UHGV virus genome: UHGV-2053560 | Reading direction: 5' to 3' (one strand) | Source: a virus | DNA: 15,005 nt | In this document: positions 2,786 to 4,481 of the stretch, in pieces | How the letters are laid out: the number at the start of each line of letters is the position of its first letter | Position numbering within the stretch: position 1 is the first letter of the stretch | The notes under the pieces: generated by a model | Databases searched by the model: none | Seen by the model: only the letters and a program-made list of their open reading frames with translations | What the model was told of the DNA's origin: nothing | Position numbers and translations under genes: made by a program

Positions 2786-2967
2786 TGCTTGCCTCCTTTG
2801 CGCAACATCGCATTCAGATATTTGTTGTCATTAACAGAACCGAAACTCTTTCTCTTAAGCAATTCCTCTCTCGATGGCATTGGCTTTACGCGTTGGCGAA
2901 TAATCATTTCTGCCGGAAGAATTCCTGGATTGTATGCAAGTCCTCTCATGGTAAATTCCTCAGTCAT
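2782..2967 (-). CDS. Hypothetical small protein (61 aa)
   Basis: In-frame ATG at 2967 lies inside AATGACTGA, overlapping the stop of the upstream 97-aa gene (translational coupling). The ORF-track N-terminal extension to 3099 would overlap that gene by 140 nt and is rejected. Confidence 0.4.
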
Positions 2968-3253
2968 TACTGATAGCGCCATAGCGTGAGCGGTAATTAC
3001 GCAGGCGCGGGTCAATTTCAGGGAAGTGGGTATATGTGGCTTTGCGGAATGGTCGGATTGATGTCTGGTAAATTCGCTCGCGTTCTTCTTTCTCTGCAAG
3101 CCATATACAATGGCGAAATTCCTTTTCCTCTTTCGTTTCCTGCGGTAGCGACATTATCAGGTCGTAGTTTTTTCTGAATTTATCCAGCACCTCCGATACG
3201 GAATTGCCGGAACAGCGGCGCGGGTCATCCGCACCATACAGAGGCGCTGGCAT
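2960..3253 (-). CDS. Hypothetical protein (97 aa)
   Basis: ATG at 3253 preceded by AGGAGA; charged, helical-looking protein; first gene after ssb in the leftward operon. Confidence 0.55.
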
Positions 3254-3266
3254 GATTTTCTCCTGA

Positions 3267-3773
3267 TTAAATTGCGTGAATAGCGTGACGAGGGAAGGGG
3301 AGAGTTACTGGTGCAAAGGGTATATCGTCGTCAAAATCCATCGGAGGTTCGTTGTGTTGTGCTGGTGATGATTGCTGCTGTGGCTTCTGTGATTGCCTGC
3401 TGGCTGCTTGTTGTTTGCTGTCGCCAATGCCGCCAAGCATTTGCATCACGCCATTAATTCCGACATGAACCTCGGTTGTGTAACGGTCTTGTCCTGACTG
3501 GTCTTTCCACTTTCTGGTTCTCAGCATTCCCTCGAAATAAATCTGATCACCTTTTTTCACATACTGCCCCACGACCTCAGCCAGTTTCCCGGATACAGCA
3601 ACACGATGCCATTCAGTCAATTCCTTTTGCTCGCCAGTATTTTTATCTCGCCATTGTTCTGACGTGGCTATTGTCAGGTTAGCGAACGCTGTTCCTGATG
3701 GTGAGTATCGAACTTCCGGGTCTTGTCCTACCCGACCAAGGATAATCACCTTATTTACGCCTCTGCTTGCCAT
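3267..3773 (-). CDS. ssb: Single-stranded DNA-binding protein (SSB), with a 15-aa tail after the canonical DDDIPF
   Basis: N-terminal OB-fold signature [23 protein letters not shown], Gln/Pro-rich linker, acidic tip [10 protein letters not shown], then a further [15 protein letters not shown] before the TAA at 3267-3269. Confidence 0.9.
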
Positions 3774-4481
3774 TTATGCCGCCTGTTTTAGTTCGTTAAC
3801 TCTGATGTTCATTACCTGAACGCATTTAGCCTGCGCCTCCTCGTTGCCAGCCATTAATTGCCAGTCACGCTGATAACGCTCGATGAGTTTTTTCTTGTCA
3901 GTTTCTGTTGATGCATAATCGCTGAAGTCTTTCAGGATTTGTTCGCAGTCAACCGATGGAGATTTCTGGTTGGTATTTTCTGGTGATGGTTTGTTATCTG
4001 ATGCTGGGATTGCCCATCCCGGCAGCGATGGAGGGAGCCAGTAAAATCCTGTTCCATCCTTGAGTTTTGCCCTGTGCCATCCCTGCTTTTTATCGAGAGA
4101 TGTTTGTGCGAAACCTTCCTCAAGGTTATACAGATACCGACCGATTCCCCACTGAACGGCAGCGCGCTTCATTGCACCGGAACGACCACCTTTGACGGCT
4201 TCTACCTGCGTGTTTTCAGCAGCATCCCATTTGGTTACCCATTCGGAATCAATCTTGATTGATATGCCGCATTCAACTCCGCCGTTGTTGGGAATATCGC
4301 GGTATTCATTGCGCCATCCTGCTTTGCCGCAAACATCGTCCAGGCGCTTCATGATTGCCCGGTTCGTGACATAAGCCAGCACCATAGCCCACACCTTGCC
4401 ATCGCGTGTTTTACCGCTTTGCTGTATTCGCCATTCGATATCTTCAGGGCTGAATGGCTCATCGAATTTATTCAAATCCAT
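3774..4481 (-). CDS. Rad52/Rad22-family single-strand annealing protein (phage recombinase, Sak-like)
   Basis: 235 aa. Conserved core resembling Rad52_Rad22 (WRNEYRD...GGVECGISIKIDSEWVTKWD...KGGRSGAMKRAAVQWGIGRYLYNL). Its stop (3774-3776) abuts the ssb start (3773). Confidence 0.7.
   Translation of the reverse strand: MDLNKFDEPFSPEDIEWRIQQSGKTRDGKVWAMVLAYVTNRAIMKRLDDVCGKAGWRNEYRDIPNNGGVECGISIKIDSEWVTKWDAAENTQVEAVKGGRSGAMKRAAVQWGIGRYLYNLEEGFAQTSLDKKQGWHRAKLKDGTGFYWLPPSLPGWAIPASDNKPSPENTNQKSPSVDCEQILKDFSDYASTETDKKKLIERYQRDWQLMAGNEEAQAKCVQVMNIRVNELKQAA

Follow-up and report, generated by a model that had tools for sequence, protein, structure and literature searches.

A phage single-stranded DNA-binding protein with an internal, host-like acidic tip followed by a conserved 15-residue tail, and HNH nuclease genes at the tip/tail boundary in sister phages

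[quoted passage not shown] Its classic partner is exonuclease I (ExoI), and the pockets of partner proteins hold the terminal Phe of SSB together with its carboxylate. In Escherichia coli, SSB is the product of a housekeeping gene and is composed of an OB fold of Pfam family PF00436, a disordered Q/P-rich linker and the acidic tip at its very end. This tip has been capped by a polypeptide in engineered SSB-GFP: placing GFP directly on the C-terminus of E. coli SSB abolished ExoI binding, and the fusion was dominant negative when supplied from a plasmid (PMC7293020). Among phage proteins, the SSB copy of epsilon34 was called simply a bacterial-type SSB in the paper on its genome (PMC2629481). 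In phage Sf6, the SSB (gp27) is paired with an HNH protein (gp26), for which the GenBank entry states only "14 contiguous amino acids identical to E. coli SSB," and the same pair is found in phages IME10, N7, CurroJimenez and Huey. Among the HNH homing endonucleases of phages, the annotated I-KsaII in polA of Staphylococcus phages belongs to the same sequence family as the HNH genes of these pairs. Free-standing nuclease genes of the T4 type are inserted between or within conserved genes, and they split genes in T4-like phages. Our literature search found no publication that mentions the tail peptide reported here or that describes capped SSB tips or SSB extensions, and the capped-tip SSB variant is apparently undescribed.

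The window analyzed in this study is the whole stretch of 15,005 nucleotides from the virus genome UHGV-2053560. Its ssb gene, the parts of the encoded protein and the neighboring genes are listed in Table 1. Similar to E. coli SSB, the window SSB matched PF00436 in a Pfam search (E = 1.6e-36, residues 6–104) and possessed a linker, which was rich in Q, P and S. A PDB sequence search also showed that the 13 residues preceding its tail were identical to the C-terminus of the E. coli SSB chains. An AlphaFold2 model of the monomer, built with an alignment of 147 sequences, contained a confident OB fold, while residues 116–150 and 159–168 were of low confidence. By its fold, linker and tip, the window protein is a bacterial-type SSB. 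Different from E. coli SSB, whose tip is terminal, the window SSB, however, has 15 codons between Phe153 and the stop codon, so that its tip is followed by 15 conserved residues and a free Phe carboxylate is absent. The extension past DDDIPF to which an earlier note on this DNA had drawn attention is thus real. The same note had placed the AGGAGA ribosome-binding site of the next gene inside the extension, but this site is in the 13-nt spacer that follows the ssb stop codon, upstream of the abc2 start codon (ATG at 3251–3253). Also different from the housekeeping gene of E. coli, the window ssb is part of a phage recombination module, in which the stop codon of the Rad52-like gene abuts the ssb start codon (TAAATG).

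Table 1. Positions in the window of the ssb gene, its parts and its neighbors.
Feature	Position	Strand	Basis
ssb	3267..3773	-	ATG-to-TAA ORF of 168 codons plus TAA; translation; Pfam PF00436
OB-fold ssDNA-binding domain, aa 1–113	3435..3773	-	AlphaFold2 pLDDT >90 with OB-type strands; Pfam aa 6–104
Disordered Q/P-rich linker, aa 114–144	3342..3434	-	pLDDT <50 at residues 116–150; composition from sequence
Acidic tip MDFDDDIPF, aa 145–153, internal	3315..3341	-	Translation; identity to E. coli SSB
Conserved 15-residue tail, aa 154–168	3270..3314	-	ORF translation; protein-cluster conservation; pN/pS
Phe153–Ala154 codon boundary, HNH insertion point in sister phages	3312..3317	-	Sequence comparison
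ssb stop codon TAA	3267..3269	-	Sequence
AGGAGA ribosome-binding site of abc2	3259..3264	-	Sequence; past the ssb stop
abc2, P22-type anti-RecBCD protein 2, downstream neighbor	2960..3253	-	Pfam PF11043, E = 6e-65
Rad52/Rad22-family annealing protein, upstream neighbor	3774..4481	-	Pfam PF04098, E = 5e-26

The genes on both sides of ssb varied among relatives. In many of them, a gene encoding an Rv2179c-like 3'-5' exonuclease (PF16473) is situated between the ssb tail and abc2, including the loci L002, L003 and L004 (2043–2591) and 41 IMG/VR loci among the matches listed; this gene is absent from the window. On the other side, the Rad52-like protein of the window ends in ...RVNELKQAA, and the ERF-family protein encoded upstream of an Atlantibacter ssb (L140, 771–1412) ends in ...GTELKQAA. 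In addition, the epsilon34 homolog of the window Rad52-like protein has its C-terminal 56 residues in common with P22 Erf (PMC2629481). Given these similar ELKQAA ends and the residues shared between epsilon34 and P22 Erf, a C-terminal module may be common to different annealing-protein cores.

SSBs of 168 amino acid residues that were identical to the window SSB were identified in the isolated phages HK75, mEp235 and mEpX2. The same 15-residue tail was also carried by the SSBs of epsilon34, ECP1 and CP-1639, whose ssb DNA was only 75–90% identical to that of the window. Moreover, when complete E. coli genomes were searched with a 75-nt query across tip and tail (coverage of at least 80%), the junction was found in 297 of 5,426 genomes, where the gene is annotated simply as ssb. 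At least nine independently sequenced phages also had the junction. Of the 120 protein clusters (90% identity) closest to the window SSB, about 108 had the tail, always with a length of 15 residues. The variants in the nearest clusters were conservative, for instance APIGLQFSRHSIHAI, and all of the approximately 48 sequence variants consisted of 15 residues. Their consensus was [AS]-P-[VI]-[TG]-L-P-[FY]-P-R-H-x-[IV]-[HY]-x-[ILV], in which L158, P159, F160, P161, R162 and H163 were the best-conserved positions of the cluster comparison. A species-level genome scan identified the tail in six enteric genera, Escherichia, Atlantibacter, Enterobacter, Kluyvera, Pseudescherichia and Buttiauxella, as well as related tails, APVGLQYPSLLNCC and similar, in Vibrio and Idiomarina. 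Related tails were also found in Ursidibacter and in a Competibacteraceae MAG, and the contexts of the tails from these last four groups were prophage- or conjugative-element-like.

These results bear directly on the suggestion of the earlier note that an original stop codon had been lost by mutation or was missing as an artifact. If a stop after TTT had been removed in this genome, by an error in sequencing or assembly or by a recent mutation private to it, the unusual look of an internal DDDIPF would be accounted for, which is the only point in favor of this view. However, the identical proteins come from isolated phages, the junction recurs in 297 complete E. coli genomes and at least nine independent phages, the tail residues are conserved across divergent genes, and the tail length is constant over about 48 variants. 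Recurrence of the tail, unchanged or with conservative variants of equal length, in hundreds of independent genomes and phages exceeds chance, and an error or a private mutation is left with next to no probability. The same note had proposed a comparison with homologs from other prophages as the check on its own reading, and this comparison showed that prophage SSBs share the conserved extension, which makes it a normal feature of a subfamily. In genome annotation, tailed SSBs should not be flagged as read-through errors.

The earlier note also considered that the extension might be tuned to the adjacent Rad52-type recombinase. Same or related tails, however, were encoded beside Rad52-like, ERF, RecT, AAA_24 or RdgC genes, which argues against such tuning. 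Some of the tailed enteric copies had a different SSB core and adjoined a true ERF protein, and the distribution of the tail tracked the host clade more than the recombinase type. Moreover, phage Huey has a Rad52-like gene and an ssb that are about 99% identical to those of the window, yet its SSB stops at a canonical IPF. Two further candidates, the genes named erf in ECP1 and CP-1639, proved to be Rad52-like, but the Atlantibacter-type loci do pair the tail with a true ERF.

Among divergent alleles, the differences in the tail were mostly synonymous. For 29 distinct genes, the pS of the tail was 0.67, its pN was 0.22–0.25 and its pN/pS was 0.33–0.38, values to be read with the pS near saturation and with two SSB core types mixed in the set, which inflates the pN of the OB domain used as comparison. 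These 29 genes were collected with a scan pattern of DDDIPF plus the next two residues, and only 15-residue tails starting with [AS]P[VILA][TGS]L were kept. The AP start and the [VILA][TGS]L were therefore imposed by the search and the filter, and the last ten tail residues were unconstrained. A different cause of conservation would be one at the level of DNA or RNA, in which the 45 nt serve as a nuclease site, as a recombination linker of mosaic modules or as a translation signal of the next gene, and the peptide is neutral. Indeed, the 45 nt are almost invariant in phages of E. coli, Shigella and Salmonella even where the ssb genes are 75–90% identical, and they are always located ahead of the next gene, which is either abc2 or the gene of the Rv2179c-like exonuclease. 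In the wider family, however, synonymous sites diverge freely while the residues and the length of 15 codons are kept. The ribosome-binding site of the next gene is outside the 45-nt segment, and the differences linked to HNH genes, which are described below, cluster upstream in the tip codons instead of in the tail. A reason at the level of DNA or RNA is therefore considered improbable. These results show that the tail is an inherited part of ssb under protein-level purifying selection, and that it moves together with the linker and the tip across different SSB cores and recombinase neighbors.

In phages Sf6, IME10, N7, CurroJimenez and Huey, an HNH gene is located exactly between the codons for Phe153 and Ala154. 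In these HNH-bearing alleles, a stop codon directly follows the Phe codon, so that the SSB ends in a canonical IPF, and the sequence is again homologous to the window from nt 3312 (third base of GCA) onward. Some of the HNH alleles retain the Ala codon (PDEA-PVT). The SSBs of Sf6, ES18 and phiKp_30 all stop at IPF. In all five phages with the insertion, the HNH ORF closes with the 45 nt that encode the tail in the window, and the C-termini of Sf6 gp26 and of the Huey endonuclease read KPIYPDE(E/A) followed by 14 tail residues. IME10, N7 and CurroJimenez carry the same HNH gene as Sf6, which encodes 159 amino acid residues. The HNH protein of Huey has 155 residues, and its N-terminal half differs from that of the Sf6 type while its end is the same. 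The loci with this pair of SSB and HNH genes and the window are alike in position, in the Rad52-like and abc2 neighbors, in ssb and in the 45-nt tail, but they differ in that the ORF of the former is split, with the tail residues at the end of the nuclease, whereas the window has no nuclease gene and carries the tail on its SSB.

When the window was aligned with Huey, the upstream 1,137 nt contained 12 mismatches and the final 30 nt ahead of the insertion point contained 8, while the 60 nt beyond this point were free of mismatches. Ahead of these 30 nt, their Rad52-like and ssb genes are about 99% identical, and on this alignment the two therefore represent one module with and without an inserted gene. 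The Sf6-type HNH gene was always found with the tip NFDDSDIPF and the Huey type always with NFDDEIPF (27 IMG/VR loci among the matches listed), and the tips of HNH-free alleles were mostly DFDDDIPF. The differences between HNH-bearing and HNH-free alleles were concentrated in the tip-coding stretch at 3315–3341. In the E. coli genomes, the 297 fused alleles compared with 99 Sf6-type and 10 Huey-type insertions (about 108 genomes with HNH).

The inserted protein matched PHROG 2340, annotated as endonuclease (E = 2.6e-47), and contained an HHCDY...CHVEWH motif; searches of Pfam and of PDB sequences returned no match for the HNH proteins. The PHROG match ended at residue 143 in the Sf6 type and at residue 139 in the Huey type, in both cases before the tail. 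This family also contains I-KsaII, which is annotated as an intron endonuclease in Staphylococcus phages, and several family members adjoin the ssb of unrelated phages. There are hints in these arrangements that the lineage repeatedly targeted ssb. Nuclease genes of this family were observed beside ssb in Mt1B1_P17 (L017, 1561–1968), Vibrio phage K289 (L018, 1501–1872) and phage ACG-M12, and these unrelated phages include both large and small ones. In ES18, a different gene, gp47 of the HNH_3 type (L008, 2025–2546), directly follows ssb, and an HNH_3 gene is located just upstream of ssb in six IMG/VR loci among the matches listed (L043 and five similar ones). Given that HNH_3 genes are also found directly after or before ssb, the flanks of ssb are, as judged from gene order, a hot spot for several kinds of selfish nuclease genes. 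In phiKp_30 (L009, 1699–1894), the copy of the Sf6-type HNH gene is decayed: its first 24 nt and last approximately 70 nt are kept, and the middle consists of unrelated sequence. The tail codons of phiKp_30 have five changes (…RHAAYAI).

The HNH gene is thus present in relatives at one exact site and missing from the window, and flanking differences, namely the tip variants and the 8 mismatches in 30 nt versus 12 in 1,137 nt, are linked to its presence. In both of these comparative features, the window locus fits an empty allele of a homing-endonuclease site. Similar to the known homing endonucleases, the inserted genes show the usual signs of such a life cycle: they are present or absent at one exact position, adjoin substitutions private to their alleles and have decayed in one phage. 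Different from them, the insertion is in frame at a functional boundary and both products are plausible proteins, while the activity and the target of the nuclease are putative. The nuclease probably recognizes the tip/tail-coding DNA of nuclease-free alleles like that of the window and spreads by homing. The substitutions clustered near the insertion could represent a short co-conversion tract instead of immunity of the target. Prophages with this ssb module were also observed beside sbcB, the gene for exonuclease I, in E. coli SH21PTE31 (L341, 11174–12423) and NT1F10 (L342, 11178–12601). The E. coli prophages at this same site, one with and one without HNH, were different mosaics and not a clean pair of gain and loss. 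The adjacency to sbcB is probably just an attachment site.

The 14 residues shared by the end of Sf6 gp26 first suggested that the tail was the scar of an HNH deletion. In that case, a canonical ssb followed by an HNH gene would be ancestral, and the DNA between the ssb stop and almost the end of the HNH ORF would have been deleted. The last 14–15 HNH codons, thereby fused to ssb, would persist as a tolerated remnant. In favor of such a scar, enteric alleles with and without HNH have 100% identical tail DNA, and the partly deleted HNH gene of phiKp_30 indicates that decay occurs at this site. However, the tail lies beyond the HNH family profile and is missing from outside homologs. The closest of these, from Pectobacterium phage DU_PP_IV (50% identity), ends in ...WHLNNDPVY where Sf6 gp26 reads ...WHKHNKPIY, and nearly all tblastn alignments to 559 phage records with HNH homologs stop at residues 134–141. 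Moreover, the DNA of the two HNH types differs at synonymous sites up to ...PIY and is identical beyond, as expected if the remainder is sequence of the locus. Extended SSBs are also much broader in distribution and more diverse than the HNH arrangement, and they include genera and SSB cores with which no HNH gene was seen. In addition, synonymous divergence in the tail is nearly saturated while its residues are kept, and a second tail family, APLHHLAGA, occurs without any HNH fusion among the 66 loci of the matches listed. The deletion scar was set aside on the profile, the outside homologs and the breadth of the extended SSBs; with the DNA of the HNH types and the selection on the tail also taken into account, it is very improbable.

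Because the tail is outside the HNH family profile, it is, by these comparisons, native to ssb, and the HNH gene is inserted into an already extended ssb. The best explanation, in which we have fairly good confidence, is that the window carries the HNH-free allele of a widespread phage and prophage SSB subfamily, whose members have a conserved, disordered tail of 15 residues behind a host-like tip. The PHROG 2340 HNH gene has inserted exactly between the Phe and Ala codons in a minority of enteric phages, each HNH type being linked to its own variant of the tip DNA. The insertion brings a stop codon by which the SSB acquires a canonical free IPF end, and the 14–15 tail codons serve the inserted gene as the last part of its reading frame. 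In the HNH-free allele, the internalized tip would reduce the recruitment of host partners such as exonuclease I, and the capped SSB would still coat ssDNA for the neighboring annealing and anti-RecBCD proteins. In the tail itself, a second Leu-Pro-Phe precedes a basic/hydrophobic end, and the tail may thereby contribute another, different signal for docking or stability.

Capped tips were also found beyond the subfamily of the window. In a scan of viral contigs (IMG/VR) for FDDDIPF, a stop codon followed the Phe codon in 84 of the 120 matches listed and an extension in the other 36, of which 22 started with Ala-Pro and 14 otherwise; these were the first 120 loci in database order, for which the frequencies are rough and redundancy is included. 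Among 150 diverse representatives, 62 ended at the tip motif and about 12 more in a variant -PF tip not captured by the pattern. Another 13 were extended, and the rest were mostly frameshifted or fragmentary sequences. Roughly, the capped share of tip-bearing phage SSBs was 15% of the diverse representatives and 30% of the database-ordered viral sample. Most extensions began with Ala-Pro and finished in non-polar residues. The second conserved tail family, in which DDDIPF is followed by the nine residues APLHHLAGA, included the loci L154, L161 and L168 and 63 other IMG/VR loci, and its tips were ...SFDDDIPF. Thus, on sequence grounds there are at least two conserved tail families, one like the tail of the window and one like APLHHLAGA. 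Shorter tails, APEWR, APAWLI and APCM, were also observed. A capped SSB is ordinary in that it is common and inherited, and unexpected for a motif that is defined by its terminal position.

Given that partner pockets use the free C-terminal carboxylate of the tip, weaker docking of partners would be expected for the tailed SSBs. The most economical reading is that, through the tail, host partners are recruited less or differently, whereas the coating of ssDNA is maintained; it is held tentatively, at slightly less than an even chance. The altered partner binding that the earlier note had offered as its other option agrees with the evidence and with this preferred functional reading. Reduced recruitment would suit a module that inhibits RecBCD and supplies its own annealing protein. 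Similar to the tip of SSB-GFP, the tip of the window SSB is capped by polypeptide. Different from SSB-GFP, in which an artificial 27-kDa domain is attached to an essential host protein, the window SSB is an accessory phage protein with a natural 15-residue disordered tail. AlphaFold2 predicted the tail to be disordered, as expected for a linear motif. In the same model from 147 sequences, docking of the tail onto the OB fold was looked for, and the model was uninformative as the tail was of low confidence. The internal tip is almost invariant in tailed SSBs, which argues that the tip has retained a role instead of being merely inactivated. Moreover, phages with a canonical tip (Huey and Sf6) and with a capped tip (HK75 and mEp235) are both viable with the same neighbor genes, and the tail is thus not essential to the module.

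Alternatively, the tail may function mainly as a C-terminal degradation signal or as a partner-docking peptide and not as a mask. Its non-polar end, ...HAIHAI, recalls by eye the C-motif 2 recognized by ClpX, as in MuA (...RRKKAI), and almost all extension families end in non-polar residues (AI, AL, VI, CC, VM, GA and LI). For docking, the positions L158–H163 (L-P-F-P-R-H) are the most conserved of the tail, and PVTLPF loosely resembles, again by eye, the beta-clamp hexapeptide of Hda, QLSLPL. That the tail follows the host clade and not the recombinase type would also agree with a function of its own. However, the tail matched no solved complex or family, and a PDB sequence search with the tail region retrieved only the SSB tip. 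When compared with the consensus for clamp binding (QL[SD]LF or QLxLxL) and for ClpX recognition (C-terminal LAA or RRKKAI-like), PVTLPF and ...RHAIHAI were alike by eye only, and the Gln at the first position of the clamp motif was missing. The data do not separate degradation or docking from masking, which are not mutually exclusive, and a tail that serves mainly as such a signal or docking peptide appears rather unlikely.

In a more general form, it may be proposed that a sizeable share of the phage SSBs with a canonical tip cap this tip deliberately with a short conserved tail, by which ssDNA coating would be uncoupled from the recruitment of host partners or the recruitment would be redirected. 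A partner-blind or dominant-negative coat would then shield recombination intermediates, and through the HNH insertion, SSBs would switch naturally between the capped and the uncapped state. This general proposal is regarded as doubtful. Phage SSBs with a conserved internal tip would be a natural test of whether a free carboxylate is needed, and owing to the HNH insertion exactly between tip and tail, capped and uncapped proteins are naturally available for experiments as matched pairs, for instance HK75 or mEp235 versus Huey. Capped SSBs could reveal how phages control the host repair enzymes that reach phage ssDNA, and they are relevant to the portability of recombineering as well as to defense systems that sense phage SSBs. 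Finally, chain A of PDB entry 7f2n, an SSB of 180 residues, was observed to contain DDDIPF at residues 169–174 followed by six more residues, which are either a tag or natural.
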